From a virus (Duplodnaviria; Heunggongvirae; Uroviricota; Caudoviricetes), in IMG/VR virus record IMGVR_UViG_2827179085_000005, positions 64,001 through 128,000 of that record: DNA of 64,000 nt, one strand, 5' to 3'. The notes under the pieces are model-generated. The model had not been told where the DNA came from, did no database searches, and saw only the letters and a program-made list of their open reading frames with translations. Every line of letters begins with the position of its first letter. Positions within the stretch are counted from its first letter, which is position 1. The position numbers were made by a program, and so were the translations under genes. Of the stretch, positions 9,401-49,566 are shown in pieces.

Positions 9401-12400
9401 TAATGTAAGCTTCTCTCCATCTGCCAACGTTCTATATGCAGAATCAAGGTCGCTTAAATCACCAATCATAGAATGTACTTCGCCCATGACATCCTTATTA
9501 AATTCAAATGGTTTAATTGGAGCATTTTCGATTGCATTCTTTGCGGCAAGATGTTTTTTCATTAGCGCATCATAGACTTCAAGAATAGGGTCTTTTTTAT
9601 CTACGACTGCTTCTTTAAGTTCTTCCAACTTAGCCTTCGTTAATTCGAAGGTTTCGTAGTTAGGTTTAATGATTTCATCGATCGTAATTCCTTTACTTTC
9701 AACGTTCTTAATTGCTTCATCGATATAATTAAAACTATCGTTGATCGACTTTTCCGCATCATTTCCGAACGTCTCCAAGTTTTCTTGCATATTTCTTTTC
9801 AGTTCTTCGATGAACACGAATTTATTGGAATCAGCGGAAATATTGTTTTTTCTTGTATACTGATTAAATGCGGTATCGATGAGTTTCATAACATCATCAG
9901 TTCCAGTTCGTAAAGAAGATTTCATCTTTTTATTTTCTTCTATATAGTACTCTCTCATTTTTTATTATCTTCGATAAAAACATTAAGAATATTAAGAGCT
10001 TCACTTTTGTTTTGCGCTTGTGGAATCAGAGATTTTAATGCTTGCATGGAAGTAAAACCATAATCTTGTTGTTCTTTTGACATTTCAGAGAACGCCTGTT
10101 GAACTTTATCATTAAATGCATTCAGTACTTCGAAATAGTTAGAATCGTTTATTTCATCAACTTCGTTTTCGAGGAATTTTTTTGCAACGCTTTGAACGTT
10201 TTCCATACCTTCCGATGAAGAGATTTGAGCTTTCATTTTCTGTATTTCTCTGAGTTTTTTGTTTACATCCTTAAAGCTTGTATCTTCCATAGTTTCCTTG
10301 AATTGTTCTTCTTCTTTAACCAAAAGGAGTTCTTCTTTCGCCTTAGTAAGTGCGCGAATCTCTCCTGCACTCTTAATAACAGCTTCGTTTTTATCATTAT
10401 AGTATGAAATCAACTCTGGCATCTCTGTTTTTATTTTTGAACTATACCAAGGTATTTTTCTTCCTCTTGTGATGTTCTGTTAGTACCTTTGGCTTGAAGG
10501 TCGGCAAAATCATCAAGTTTGAAGTCTTTCTGATTGAAAGTTTCTTCGTAAGATTGCTTATAATCTTTCAGCTTGCTAATTTCAGCATCAAGAACTTTCA
10601 ACCTCTCTTTTCTTGCTCTTGATTCAGCAGTAAACGCCTTAACAACGACTGTCGCCGCTGTACCAATTGCAAGAAGAACAGCAACGTATGGAATAAGTCT
10701 AGGTAAGAAGCTAACAAACTTCATCACAAATCCACCAAGACCTTCAAAAGCTCTACCTAATGCGCCAACTGTTGTTACGGAGTCTCTGAGTGGTTTGCTT
10801 GCCATGACAGCAACAAGACCAGACATAAGTACAATAATGTTAGTTGCACCGAAAGTATCTACTATCGACGTAATTCCATCAACGATAGATGTGAGGACAT
10901 CAATAAACCATTTAACAGCATCATCGTCAACTATAGTTGTCCAGAAATGTTCAATAGCATTTTTAAGTTGTCCGATTTTATATTCGAATCCATCCATATA
11001 AGCACTAAACTCTCGTGAAGCAGAACCAGCAGAATTACTAGCGGTTTCACTAGCTTTCTGAGCATCTTCCCAGTTCTGGATGATTGCAGATACAACGACA
11101 CCCTGATGTTTTCCACCCATTGTTTCAACTAGATTTGCTCGTTCCAAATCAGTTAGTTTGTCCCATACTTTTGCAACACCTTCAAAGATTTTGTATGTTG
11201 ACTTAAATGTAACTCCATCTTCCTCCATAACACTCAAAATTTCGTCATTCATTAACCCAAAATCTTTATTAATTCTATCGAATGTTTTTTGAAGCTGTGG
11301 AACAAGTTCTTCGACTCCATCTCCTTCTTCTTTGACTCCACGAAGACGCATAGCAATGGTCTTCAATCCATTACCTACTTTATCAGGGTCTTGCACGACA
11401 GAGTTTGCGGCTGTAACCAGACCTACAGCATCTTGAATACTGGTTCCTGCTTCATTAAATACAGCAGACGAACGTTTTAATGCTTCTCCGATACCTTCTG
11501 AGGAAATCGCAAAATTATTACCAACTTCATTGAACATATCTACAAGTTTACGAACATTATTGCCCTGTGCATCTACCTCTACGCCAAATCCTTTAATTGT
11601 AGATACAAGGTTTGAACTTGCATCTTCGACACTCATATCACCAACGTTAGCGTACAAGATACTGTTTTTACCCAGAACAGTCGCTTGCTCTAAAGAATAA
11701 CCAAGGCGCTGGAACTCTGTAGTAGCCTTAATAACCTCTGTAGCCACTACACCTAAATCTCTACCCATTGCAGAAGCCGTATTCTTGAATGCATCCAGTT
11801 GCTGTTTACTCGCTTCTGATACCTTTGCAAGATTAACCATTTCCTTGTCAATATCAAGTATAGACCGAAAACCGTTCTTGACTTGCTGAATAGTTCCATA
11901 AACAACGCCCATCGCGGCAGTCCAAACAGGAACTTTTCTGAGCGCATTCACAAGTTGACCACCCATAGAACCTCTTCTGCGCTGATCTTCGTCACGAAGT
12001 CTGCGAGATTCAGAGTTGAGGTGATTCATGGATTCTTCGATTTCTCTAGTAGCCTGATGGAACTCGTCTCCAACCTTCCCAGAAAGACCATTTACCTTCG
12101 CTTCGACATCTTCGATGATCCCTTTAATTTTTCTCGCTTCGGCAGAGTTTTCACTAAACCCTCTCGTCGCACGATAACTTGTACTATTAAACTTATCTCT
12201 AATCTTTTGTTCTTGAATGTCTCGATTACTACCTGACGAGTTAGAGTTTCTTTGAATTTGAGAAAGCTGTTTGAGAGCCGAAATCTTTTGTTGAATTTCT
12301 CTTTGTTCATCATACGATAATTGAAGACCACGCTCTTTAAGTTGGTTAATTTCTCGTTGAAGTCGAGCGGCATCTTCTTCGATTTTGTTTTGCATTCCTT

Positions 12401-43308: not shown

Positions 43309-43423
43309 TCAACGTGTGGGATTCTCTAGTCCACTTTTGTACAATCGTAACGAACACGAACGGAACGAAACAAACGCATTTGAGGGAATGCGAAAAACCA
43401 AACGGAAAAGGAGAAATAATATC

Positions 43424-44549
43424 ATGAATAAATTCAAATTGGCTCACGCTATCGCAAAAGTTTTGAAGGGCGACTATTCCGCACGTATGGCATACGCTTG
43501 GCAGATTATTAAGGCAGACCGCTTGCATGAAGTATCAGAACTGCTCGACGTTGAAACGCTCACGCCTAAAATGTATGTATCTGAATACCCATACGCGACA
43601 GCTAAAAAAGCTGACCAGATGCCTAAGAAAGTACGTATAAAATCAAAAACACAAAAAATCTAAGAAGGTTCAACCAATCGAAGAACCAGCGCAAAAAATC
43701 GTACATACCGCAATTCCTGAAAACCTTGCAACAGTGTTCACCGCTCAACAGTGCGCGGCAATCGATGAAATTATCACGAACTATGTATATGGCAAGATGG
43801 ACAAGAGAACAGGCAAACGTAACAATGGCGCGAATGAGCTAGAAGGGGAACACATGGACATGGCGCGTTTCCGCTATAATGACGGAATCGAAGCACTCAA
43901 AAATATCAAGGGTGCAACGTTCCCAATGTCCTACACAAACGCAAAAGGCGACGAAGTGGAGTATGATTATACGCCTTTCATGCAACTGCAAACAGCAATG
44001 GTTACTTACTTCCTACGCGACTATGTAAAAATGACTGTAAAGCGTTTCTTAGATATGGGCTTGAATTTCAAGCAATTAGAACAAGTACAAGCAATGGCAA
44101 GCATTGAAGCGAAACAAAGCTATATGATGGCTTCAAGCAATCGCGGGAATATTGTAGCGTTTGACATTGACGACATCATGGACGAATTTGTATTCGATTC
44201 TATGCGCCTAACTTTTAGCGAAACAATGTTCGATAGTGCAGATGATGCGGTTAAAGTATGTTTTATGAGACTTAAAAACGTTATGAGAGTTCAACTTCGT
44301 AAACTCCGCAATCAAACACTAGTTGTCACAGAGCAACAAATGTATGTGCAGGAGGAAGGAGTTTCACGCTCTACAGAAGAAGAAGCGTTACAAATGGCTA
44401 AGGAAATGGGAATTTTCAGTGATGCAGAAATGGAAATTATTCGCCTACGCCTTGAAGGGTTCAAAAAGGTTGAAATTGATAAGCAAGTGGGCAAACGTAC
44501 TGACCGCGATTTCAAGCGCATCGAAAAAGCATACAACGCCGCTGTATAA
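43424..44549 (+). CDS. Sigma70-family-like (SigH/ECF-like) factor with N-terminal extension, about 375 aa after two homopolymer repairs
   Basis: Region-2-like FDIDDIMDEFVFDSMRL...RLKNVMRVQLRKLR and region-4-like FSDAEMEIIRLRLEGFKKVEIDKQVG. The GTG at 43734 has no RBS; adding one A each at 43645-49 and 43653-58 fuses it to the RBS-led ORF at 43424. Confidence 0.55.
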
Positions 44550-45184: not shown

Positions 45185-45317
45185 GAGAGGGGCGAAAGCC
45201 CTTCTTTTTGTTTGGCTTGAAAACGTCATGCAAAAATATTTTTATTTTGCGTGTGGTTTTTGTCTCAAACTGTACAAATACATATGAGGGACAAATCATA
45301 TAGAAAAGGTGAAAACG

Positions 45318-45874: not shown

Positions 45875-45956
45875 TTTCATATAGGCGTGTGGTTTCGCCA
45901 TGCGCCTGTACAATTATATATGAGGGACAAAAACAAACGGAAAAGGATGATTAGAC

Positions 45957-47145: not shown

Positions 47146-47447
47146 ATGGTTGAGATTTTCGGGTTTACATAGCGACTCACATTGAGGATCACAAGGCTCT
47201 CGCAGGTGCGAACCTAGAAAGGGGAATGCGATATGTGCTAATTAACCTAGAGACGAAAGGGACAAGAACGATATTAAGGAGGGATGATATATATGATTGT
47301 CGAATAGAAATACATCACAAGACTACCAGCACAACGCGCGGTGTTGGTAGTCTCTTTTTACTAAGCACGAAAAAGGCATACAAAGAAATTTGTATATCTT
47401 TTTGGCGTTTAGTGTGGGATTTACTAACGCTTTTGTACAATACATAG
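47146..47447 (+). CDS. Possible hypothetical protein (needs a frameshift repair)
   Basis: RBS-led MVEIFGF joins ORF 47226..47447 if TTT at 47164-66 is TTTT; the ORF runs through a terminator-like hairpin (47321-53), so the 3' end is doubtful. Confidence 0.3.
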
Positions 47448-47479
47448 TGTGAGGGACACACGAAAAGGAGAAGATAAAC

Positions 47480-47836: not shown

Positions 47837-47918
47837 TAAATTTTTCGGGAGTGTGGGAAACCACACTCCTTTTGTACAACTACTATTGAGGGACAAAACA
47901 AGAAAGGGAATGGTGAAT

Positions 47919-48467: not shown

Positions 48468-48773
48468 ATGAACACAACTAAGACAAATAACGCAGGTAAA
48501 ACTTTTGAAGAGATTTTGAATGGACTTCTTGGCGACATGGAAAAGAAATTCGCAATGGCGATGGCGATAGAGCAAGCAAAAGAAAAGATGAACGAAGAAC
48601 TTCAACAAATGGGCGATATGGTCATGGGTTCTATAGAAGTGGAAGAATGCCCATGCGAACGCAATTGCGGAGCAGTCAAAGTATCGGCAGAATTTACAGC
48701 TATGACATTTACGCAAAAAGGAATTGAAGTAAAGGAAGGCAAGATTGAAAACATTCTGTCATTCAACGAATAG
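48468..48773 (+). CDS. Hypothetical coiled-coil protein
   Basis: After element 48397. Confidence 0.6.
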   Translation: MNTTKTNNAGKTFEEILNGLLGDMEKKFAMAMAIEQAKEKMNEELQQMGDMVMGSIEVEECPCERNCGAVKVSAEFTAMTFTQKGIEVKEGKIENILSFNE

Positions 48774-48782
48774 TACACAAGT

Positions 48783-48939
48783 CTAGCCAACTACGGTTGG
48801 CTAGTGAATCGAACGCATAAGTGGTTCCCTCAAACCTTTTCCTACCTTGTGCGCTCGATTCACTACACATGGCTCTGAAAATTAATGCTTGATAAGGTTG
48901 TCCCTCAAAACCTTTTCCTCCTTATTGAGCATTAATTTT
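48783..48939 (+). ncRNA. Candidate triple-hairpin small RNA with two homologous C/U-rich loops
   Basis: Hairpin with C-UACG-G loop (48783-804); two long hairpins (48802-65, 48878-939) with loops TTCCCTCAAACCTTTTCC and TTGTCCCTCAAAACCTTTTCCT; no ORF. Confidence 0.65.
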
Positions 48940-48996
48940 TGAAGCTGTGGGATTTCGCTTCATATTTGTACAACTATTATCAGGAGGGATTAACAT

Positions 48997-49566
48997 ATGA
49001 ATTATCTTAATATTCATGCAGTATCAGAAACCTACGAGCTGGTTGTTGATGCAATCGAAAGCGCGAAGATCGAAGACGCTGAACAAATTGAATGGCAAGA
49101 CGCTTATGTCATGCTTCATGATTCGATGCACGACAAAATGATTAGCGCATACCATTATGGTGAGCCAGCATACACGAAAGACTTGTTCCTGATATTCGGT
49201 GAAATGCTTTCGATAATGCACGATGGGAAGGCGCGAGAAGTCGAATACAATTCGATTATCAATTCCGTCAAAGAGCGTATTAAATTTCTTAATGGCGGCG
49301 AAATAATGGTATGGGTTAATGTTTACACAATTACACGCGAATATGGCGGTGCAGAAGAAGGCGGTTGGTATTATGATTGGAGAAAGTTATCAGACTCACA
49401 GCTTTGTAAATATGAAGATGCTGAAAATATTGAAGCATCTATGCGTGAAAAGTACGGAGAAGGCGAAGGAAACATTTCAAGCGTCCTTGGTGGTTACGAG
49501 ATTGATATATGTATCGAAGGTAGTCGCGGCGCGTCACGCTCGACATGCAGACCGCACTATGAATAA
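48997..49566 (+). CDS. Hypothetical phage protein (VNVY..TREYGGAEEGGWYY motif)
   Basis: RBS GGAGGG after element 48947. Confidence 0.6.
   Translation: MNYLNIHAVSETYELVVDAIESAKIEDAEQIEWQDAYVMLHDSMHDKMISAYHYGEPAYTKDLFLIFGEMLSIMHDGKAREVEYNSIINSVKERIKFLNGGEIMVWVNVYTITREYGGAEEGGWYYDWRKLSDSQLCKYEDAENIEASMREKYGEGEGNISSVLGGYEIDICIEGSRGASRSTCRPHYE

Follow-up and report, generated by a model that had tools for sequence, protein, structure and literature searches.

The stretch of 64,000 nucleotides analysed here (the window) represents positions 64001-128000 of a 141,141-bp contig (G000:C4) and harbors, on the plus strand between ~43.3 and 58.3 kb, a ~14 kb array of small genes to which no function is assigned. 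At 37.9-41.8 kb, ParM/ParR-like genes were read from the sequence in the initial annotation. The packaging and portal genes share 72% DNA identity with those of Brevibacillus phage Sundance, an SPbeta-like phage of 134 kb which is the nearest named phage, while Paenibacillus agilis N4 is the sole close relative among the species genomes. Judged by these relationships, the carrier is a large SPbeta/Sundance-like prophage of a Paenibacillus-like bacterium. The contig itself is of phage-like size, compared to the 134 kb of Sundance, so the prophage may exist as a replicon of its own and not in integrated form.

Each gene of the array is preceded by a repeated element, GTGTG(G/A)-N14-TGTACAA-nTAnnAT. 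In the more permissive form GTGTG(G/A)-N14-TGTA(C/T)AA-nTAnnAT, it can be observed between 43314 and 58326 before nearly every small early gene, and it is kept in all of the related phages (L140, L144, L269 and L279). By analogy with SPBRE, the operator of MrpR in SPbeta (PMC10516654), the element may constitute a phage-specific promoter and/or operator. The Shine-Dalgarno (SD) sequence of several array genes lies within ~7 nt of the element, so that their leaders would be very short with a 5′-proximal SD, and several genes (46322, 55636, 56344 and 48967) use the GAGG that adjoins the element as their SD. With an SD-like motif placed directly after the element, transcription must therefore start within a few nt of that motif. 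In L140, a Thg1-like protein (PF04446, tRNA-His guanylyltransferase family) is encoded at 10351-11076 among the small early genes of the array.

The feature under study, at 48783-48946 on the plus strand, is located inside this array. It is flanked upstream by a 101-codon ORF of unassigned function (48468-48773, plus strand), the transcript of which most likely ends in the RNA, and downstream by the next repeated promoter-like element (GTGGGA ... TGTACAACTATTAT; 48947-48981, plus strand), which opens the downstream transcription unit, followed by a 189-codon ORF (48997-49566, plus strand). The 189-aa protein is likewise without an assigned function, but its family combines an N-terminal four-helix part with a strongly conserved C-terminal domain, WVNVY..YGGPEEGGWYYD..GDISSVLGG (AlphaFold model; pLDDT: 89.6). 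It has no match in Pfam, matches only families of unknown function among the PHROGs and shows no fold match in the PDB, while the AlphaFold DB matches to its C-terminal domain are all uncharacterised.

The initial annotation had described an ORF-free unit with a cUACGg hairpin and two long hairpins, and all of its sequence statements on this unit were confirmed. The plus strand of 48783-48946 folds with a minimum free energy of -72.5 kcal/mol (z-score: -9.2; none of 200 shuffles folds as well), while the minus strand of the same interval reaches -63.5 kcal/mol. Hairpin 1 (48783-48804, plus strand) consists of a 9-bp stem and a UACG tetraloop closed by a C-G pair, and is likely a 5′ protective or processing hairpin. 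Hairpin 2 (48804-48863, plus strand) has a stem of ~18 bp and a loop of ~22-24 nt at 48822-48845, in which a first block, TTCCCTCA (48825-48832; as RNA UUCCCUCA), is followed by a second, CCTTTTCC (48835-48842; as RNA CCUUUUCC). Hairpin 3 (48871-48946, plus strand) has a stem of ~27 bp and a 22-nt loop at 48898-48919, with the first block as TTGTCCCTCA (48898-48907; as RNA UUGUCCCUCA) and the second again as CCTTTTCC (48911-48918). The two loops of ~22 nt thus share the blocks UCCCUCA and CCUUUUCC. The U-run after hairpin 3 (48936-48940, plus strand), present in eight of the nine members of the family described below, is the probable 3′ end of the RNA, and hairpin 3, with its A-tract/U-tract base, is a probable terminator. 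None of the six reading frames contains an ORF that is conserved across three relatives. Two small ORFs within the RNA, of 7 codons on the plus and 35 codons on the minus strand, are not conserved and were rejected. No Rfam family matches the window at its gathering score (searched to E = 10, with the best local E-value of ~1 far below threshold), and a scan of the window for tRNA and tmRNA found none.

The RNA family comprises nine members, namely the window copy and eight in related prophages and phage contigs. A DNA search returned one same-genus homolog, with 82% identity, and a third was reached through the upstream protein in a Logan assembly. Further members were reached through homologs of the 189-aa protein at 45-51% identity, all of them with the RNA before the element, while a combined hairpin-1 and loop pattern yielded one true member in IMG/VR (G425/L279, a 154-kb contig). 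The RNA is located just upstream of the 189-aa gene in 8/8 examined homologs at an identity of at least 45%, and is not present upstream of a 38%-identical homolog. The number of loop-hairpins per RNA ranges from one to three, with three in L269, two in L271, L272 and L296, and one in L270, so that each hairpin would represent an independent functional unit.

The six members with two units, covering 53 base pairs, were used for the analysis of covariation. In this set 97.5% of the cells are paired and compensatory changes are seen at 19 of the 53 pairs; in 500 column shuffles, not one of the five covariation measures is equalled, and controls with slid partners give at most three compensatory pairs, although the family is small and its members are related, such that these statistics rest on few independent lineages. 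Compensatory change affects 11 of the 20 pairs in the helix of hairpin 2 and seven pairs in hairpin 3, of which the AAAAUUA/UAAUUUU base is invariant. The GCCAAC/GUUGGC stem of hairpin 1 is kept in 8/9 members, and L271 alters it with compensation.

Many of the stem pairs are G-U, and one-sided substitutions pass through G-U. Furthermore, every one of the nine members folds more stably on the plus strand, with a margin of 5.5-32.5 kcal/mol, and the element is therefore taken to be an RNA, read in the direction of the array. These results bear on two other ways of reading the locus. Long inverted repeats with repeated conserved centres could also be a DNA-level element, with hairpins extruded in single-stranded DNA or iterons serving replication or packaging. 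This is very improbable, as covariation with frequent G-U (G-T) pairs and a steady strand asymmetry suits RNA better, the feature lies within an array of co-directional early genes, precisely in the gap that separates a stop codon from a promoter-like element, and its unit number varies without an associated replication gene. The initial annotation had also raised the possibility of a GGA-loop decoy of the CsrB/Rsm type on the minus strand, where the loops would read GGAAAAGG...UGAGGGA and contain GGA. This was rejected, the better fold lying on the plus strand in every member; on the minus strand the G-U pairs of the stems turn into C-A mismatches, and both the flanking genes and the U-run belong to the plus strand. 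A transcript of that kind is extremely unlikely.

The observation that the stems differ while the loops are constant was borne out across the nine members, with compensatory pairs in the former and fixed blocks in the latter. Among their 18 loops, UCCCU and CCUUUUCC are both intact in 15, and UCCCU is always found inside a hairpin loop. The consensus of the 18 loops is UU(G)UCCCU(C/U)(A/U), a G-free spacer of 1-7 nt, and (C)CCUUUUCC, with UCCCUUA, UCCCUCU and UCCCCUCU as variants of the first block. A spacer of variable length is more readily reconciled with two single-stranded seeds than with a single rigid site for a protein.

The loop motif is absent from Brevibacillus phage Sundance. Comparison of the region and both flanking proteins against the INPHARED phages by blastn and tblastn returned nothing, as did comparison of the region against the PLSDB plasmids, while DNA and pattern searches of 400 family genomes and a covariance model run on 21 genus genomes retrieved nothing beyond the genome of the window and one relative, which matches P. 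agilis N4. Loose matches to the loop pattern are numerous in IMG/VR, the GTDB representatives and metagenomes, and arise by chance; those re-scanned were rejected by covariance models, and those from GTDB by reading. One such chance match, in the Chloroflexia MAG OY969916.1 (L123-L133), belongs to an unrelated repeat of ~80 nt (GAGGGG ... CCCCTCAAACTCCCCTTTTCC) that occurs in many, often tandem, copies. As judged from these comparisons, the RNA family is undescribed before, while the kind of RNA that it would represent is already known.

The position of the feature indicates how it may be transcribed. Hairpin 1 begins 6-14 nt past a stop codon in every member (9 nt past that of the 101-codon ORF in the window), although the upstream genes vary, belonging to the 101-aa family in some members and being others in L140, L269 and L272. 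No conserved promoter precedes hairpin 1 in the eight upstream regions that were read. A weak sigma-A-like match, TTGAAA-18-AATAGT, at 48745-48774 overlaps the end of the 101-codon ORF and has a counterpart in L269 alone, and promoter-like matches in the region are not commoner than in shuffled sequences. The most economical interpretation is that the RNA is derived from the 3′ end of the upstream transcript, or forms a long structured 3′-UTR, and would end at the U-run of the last hairpin. Hairpin 3 has a U-run, an AU-rich stem base and a loop of 22 nt, and was not called by a terminator scan that called the neighbouring junctions. Given this base and the missing terminator call, some read-through is possible.

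Such an arrangement could also be explained if the feature were purely a cis-acting end of the upstream transcript, that is, an elaborate terminator with a 3′ stabiliser or RNase III processing site which insulates two transcription units, and which may include a contact of the 3′-UTR with its own SD. The start a few nucleotides past a stop codon, with no conserved promoter, and the hairpin and U-run placed directly before the next promoter-like element agree with this, as do the ordinary GC-rich terminators that occupy the same place at other array junctions. Long perfect stems are, furthermore, the classical substrates of RNase III. In four phages, the genes of the 101-aa family use AGGGGA as their SD, and the L269 transcript which has the RNA at its end begins with a leader that matches the loop of this RNA over 11 nt. 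A precedent exists in the icaR 3′-UTR, where an anti-SD motif, UCCCCUG, acts in cis on its own SD and recruits RNase III (PMC3868564). A cis function of this sort would, however, leave the conservation of ~20-nt loops amid drifting stems unexplained, as well as the duplication and triplication of units; in the window, the loops find only a weak partner in the leader of the RNA's own mRNA (longest match: 5 nt; -9.9 kcal/mol), and the AU-rich base of hairpin 3 would make it a mediocre intrinsic terminator. We consider it unlikely that a cis-acting 3′ end is all that the locus provides.

The loops were compared with the leaders of the array genes, a leader being defined as the 55 nt after each element, which gives 24 leaders in the window. 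The loop complements named in the initial annotation are all present, namely TGAGGGACAA at 45285, 45921 and 47887 (exact) and at 47450 (9/10), TGAGGGAA at 43381, and GGAAAAGG at 43404, 44652, 45621 and 45939. Over the whole 141-kb contig, 5/8 plus-strand copies of TGAGGGA and 4/5 of GGAAAAGG lie within the 4.5 kb directly upstream of the RNA. A contiguous perfect loop complement of 8-11 nt occurs in seven of the 24 leaders, all seven being among the ten upstream of the RNA and none among the 13 downstream. By comparison, 1,000 composition-preserving shuffles of the loops, a procedure which allows for the paralogy of the leaders, match 1.4 leaders on average (P ~0.001). Complements of at least 8 nt are found in 6.4% of 5,848 host start regions and in 4.7% of the contig's other genes. 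The same shuffling test gives P-values of 0.03-0.05 in P. agilis, L140 and L269, and a 13-nt match exists in L140 between its own loop and the GUGUGAGGGACAC leader, the ortholog of the leader at 47446. The predicted loop-leader duplexes range from -14 to -20 kcal/mol for upstream leaders and from -9 to -12 kcal/mol for downstream ones.

Five of the leaders, all on the plus strand, are candidate targets. That of a 79-codon ORF (43375-43411) has UGAGGG in the loop of a 6-bp hairpin and GGAAAAGG in its ribosome binding site (RBS). The candidate at 45283-45310 carries UGAGGGACAA, part of which falls in the loop of a small hairpin, and then GAAAAGG in the RBS, and is predicted to pair with loop 2 at -17.3 kcal/mol, while the unstructured candidate at 45919-45946 contains exact copies of both UGAGGGACAA and GGAAAAGG. 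In the candidate at 47446-47470, AGGGA is located in the loop of a GUGUG-AGGGA-CACAC hairpin, and the fifth (47885-47910) has an 11-nt perfect complement, UUGAGGGACAA, to loop 2. Hairpins at the leader starts (43375-43392, 45283-45300 and 47447-47461) display (U)GAGGGA in their loops, and the stem of the hairpin at 43375 is kept in L140 through a compensatory change from A-U to C-G. The placement of leader motifs in hairpin loops would allow loop-loop contacts like those of RNAIII.

The leader at 43381 had been assigned to a sigma-like gene, and a negative feedback of the RNA on the sigma factor of its own regulon had been proposed. This proposal was not supported. The leader belongs to the 79-codon ORF, which lies ahead of the 271-aa ORF in question (43734-44549), and the latter matches nothing in Pfam or PHROG up to E = 10. 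In the language-model clusters nearest to it, some of the members have a Sigma70_r4, Sigma70_ECF or Sigma70_r2 domain. A sigma-factor feedback loop is thus a hypothesis that builds on another hypothesis.

Several observations restrict how far the complementarity may be read as specificity. The leaders are paralogous, such that the loop matches represent few independent events, and the caveat already raised that part of the match is generic anti-SD sequence holds, both matched motifs being SD-like. The mean duplex energy is -15.2 kcal/mol for host start regions and -13.1 kcal/mol for those of the phage, and as host start regions pair equally well or better by energy, the specificity of the loops for the array is doubtful. 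No extended host target was found in a genome-wide antisense search, in which the longest matches, of 13-15 nt, are at chance level, and the rRNA operon contains only chance 7-8-mers. Loop complements are not enriched among the leaders of the more distant member G425/L279 (P = 0.62), and none of these leaders carries a complement of this member's own variant of the first block. The second earlier caveat, that the two seeds are not co-linear with a single mRNA, also holds, as the blocks stand in the opposite order to the leader motifs, and a single leader could use both only through two different loops. RNAcofold of the full RNA with the leaders was uninformative, because pairing between loop and target is pseudoknotted and is not representable. 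Of the claim that the loops are antisense to the named leaders, a complementarity above chance therefore stands, while the case for a dedicated regulon is weakened by the equally good pairing of host starts and the lack of enrichment in G425.

This weakness of base-pairing target specificity lends some weight to a protein-binding decoy, sponge or scaffold, the loops of which would be sites for a binder of C/U-rich single strands (a KH, S1 or cold-shock domain protein, Rho, or a phage protein), with the number of hairpins setting the capacity. Multi-site decoys similarly repeat a conserved site on variable stems, as the bipartite loop does here one to three times, and the loops are strongly depleted in G. 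Most members keep a gene of the 101-aa family before the RNA and one of the 189-aa family after it. This neighbourhood is not strict, since G425 has a different downstream gene next to the RNA, although its upstream gene is of the 101-aa family, and L140 has an extra gene upstream of the RNA. Both flanking proteins are acidic and match no RNA-binding family or fold. Furthermore, the spacer between the blocks varies in sequence as well as from 1 to 7 nt in length, which would be unusual for the site of a single protein. Taken together, a protein decoy appears a rather improbable explanation of the loops.

The reading we prefer, and to which we would give about an even chance, is that the locus encodes a phage-borne base-pairing regulatory RNA of ~160 nt, read from the plus strand and carrying redundant anti-SD seeds. 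Such an RNA would be released from, or simply form, the 3′ end of the mRNA of the small gene that precedes it and would end at hairpin 3, with hairpin 1, a UNCG-type tetraloop stem, shielding its 5′ end. Each long hairpin would offer a G-poor loop of ~20 nt with two seeds, UCCCU(C)A and CCUUUUCC, both of which complement SD-like purine tracts, UGAGGGA and GGAAAAGG. Pairing to such tracts in a leader would block binding of the 30S subunit and could create substrates for RNase III, and the tract would be exposed by several phage early leaders, either in the loop of a small hairpin or at the extreme 5′ end. The loop units would be redundant and modular, with one to three per RNA among the relatives. 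We infer from the sequence comparisons both that a discrete RNA accumulates and acts by base-pairing and which mRNAs (phage early, host or its own) it would affect. Phage early leaders are the most likely targets within the base-pairing reading, but as an overall proposition this is tentative and somewhat doubtful. The stems of 20-27 bp are unusually long for a trans-acting sRNA, which counts against base-pairing.

The base-pairing reading can be compared with several known systems. Unpaired UCCC loop motifs are established anti-SD seeds of RNAIII, RsaE, SprD, FsrA and LhrC (PMC2790875, PMC4132741), and the Rsa sRNAs combine a 5′ hairpin with a terminal terminator hairpin (PMC2790875). The phage RNA resembles S. 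aureus RNAIII (H7, H13 and H14), RsaE/RoxS and other Rsa RNAs in its several loop copies of UCCC(U), its 5′ hairpin and terminator hairpin, its SD-complementary seeds and its low-GC Gram-positive host (PMC2790875). It differs from RNAIII and the Rsa RNAs in that it has no sequence or Rfam kinship with them, carries larger (~20-nt) bipartite loops with an invariant CCUUUUCC on stems of 20-27 bp, is phage-borne and apparently lacks a promoter of its own, and its function is one predicted from sequence. LhrC of Listeria monocytogenes, with three redundant sites, shares with it the redundant CU-rich/UCCC sites, each able to bind a G-rich tract before a start codon, by which one RNA could hold several mRNAs (PMC4132741). 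LhrC, however, is chromosomal, multicopy as whole genes and induced by LisRK, whereas the redundancy of the phage RNA lies in hairpin units within one RNA. The icaR 3′-UTR (PMC3868564) and the contact between the 5′- and 3′-UTR of hbs (PMC5737220) likewise involve a UCCC-type 3′-UTR motif, of which the pairing with the SD leads to a translational block and RNase III cleavage, but these act in cis on their own mRNA, while the own leader of the window RNA matches poorly.

Among phage and prophage sRNAs, DicF and IpeX (PMC12197685) are small and structured, often have CU-rich loops and are proposed to cover the RBS, as is the RNA described here. They are unrelated to it in sequence and host range, and lack its layout of hairpin 1 plus one to three twin-block loop units. 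CsrB, RsmY and RsmZ, as well as ToxI-type RNAs, resemble the phage RNA in consisting of repeated modular units with a conserved exposed motif. The plus strand of the phage RNA, unlike CsrB/Rsm RNAs, lacks GGA loops, and genes for a ToxN-like or CsrA-like partner were not detected next to it. A type III toxin-antitoxin RNA (ToxI-like) was considered and rejected, since the units have nothing but their loops in common and do not form direct repeats, and the following gene is set off from the RNA by a promoter-like element. The STAB-SD or SP82-type 5′ stabilisers of Bacillus mRNAs resemble the candidate target motif UGAGGGACAA, which follows the promoter-like element upstream of the real RBS, and not the RNA itself, the start site in this comparison being inferred from the sequence (PMC4113751, PMC3997798).

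A more elaborate form of the base-pairing reading, speculative and in our view distinctly improbable, would see the RNA as a timing device of the early programme and a multivalent mimic of the 3′ tail of 16S rRNA. Its loops would strip the 30S subunit from SD-like 5′ stabilisers, with UGAGGGACAA at the extreme 5′ end, and from the first-wave RBS, two loops binding the two sites of one leader. The exposed mRNAs would then fall to a 5′ exonuclease and RNase III, and the first wave would be turned off as levels of the RNA, expressed from mid-array, rise.

Regulatory RNAs in the phages of Gram-positive bacteria are barely charted, and a family supported by covariation can now be placed in the large prophages of the SPbeta/Sundance type that Paenibacillus-type hosts carry. 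Its modular design, in which a cap hairpin is joined by one to three seed loops, together with the short list of candidate leaders, makes it directly testable. Should the RNA prove to be only a terminator or 3′-UTR element, it would still represent a conserved junction that is useful for the annotation of such phages. If it does control early phage or host translation, the UCCC anti-SD mechanism of staphylococcal, listerial and Bacillus sRNAs would extend to temperate phages, and the RNA would provide a handle on the timing of the 14-kb early-gene array.
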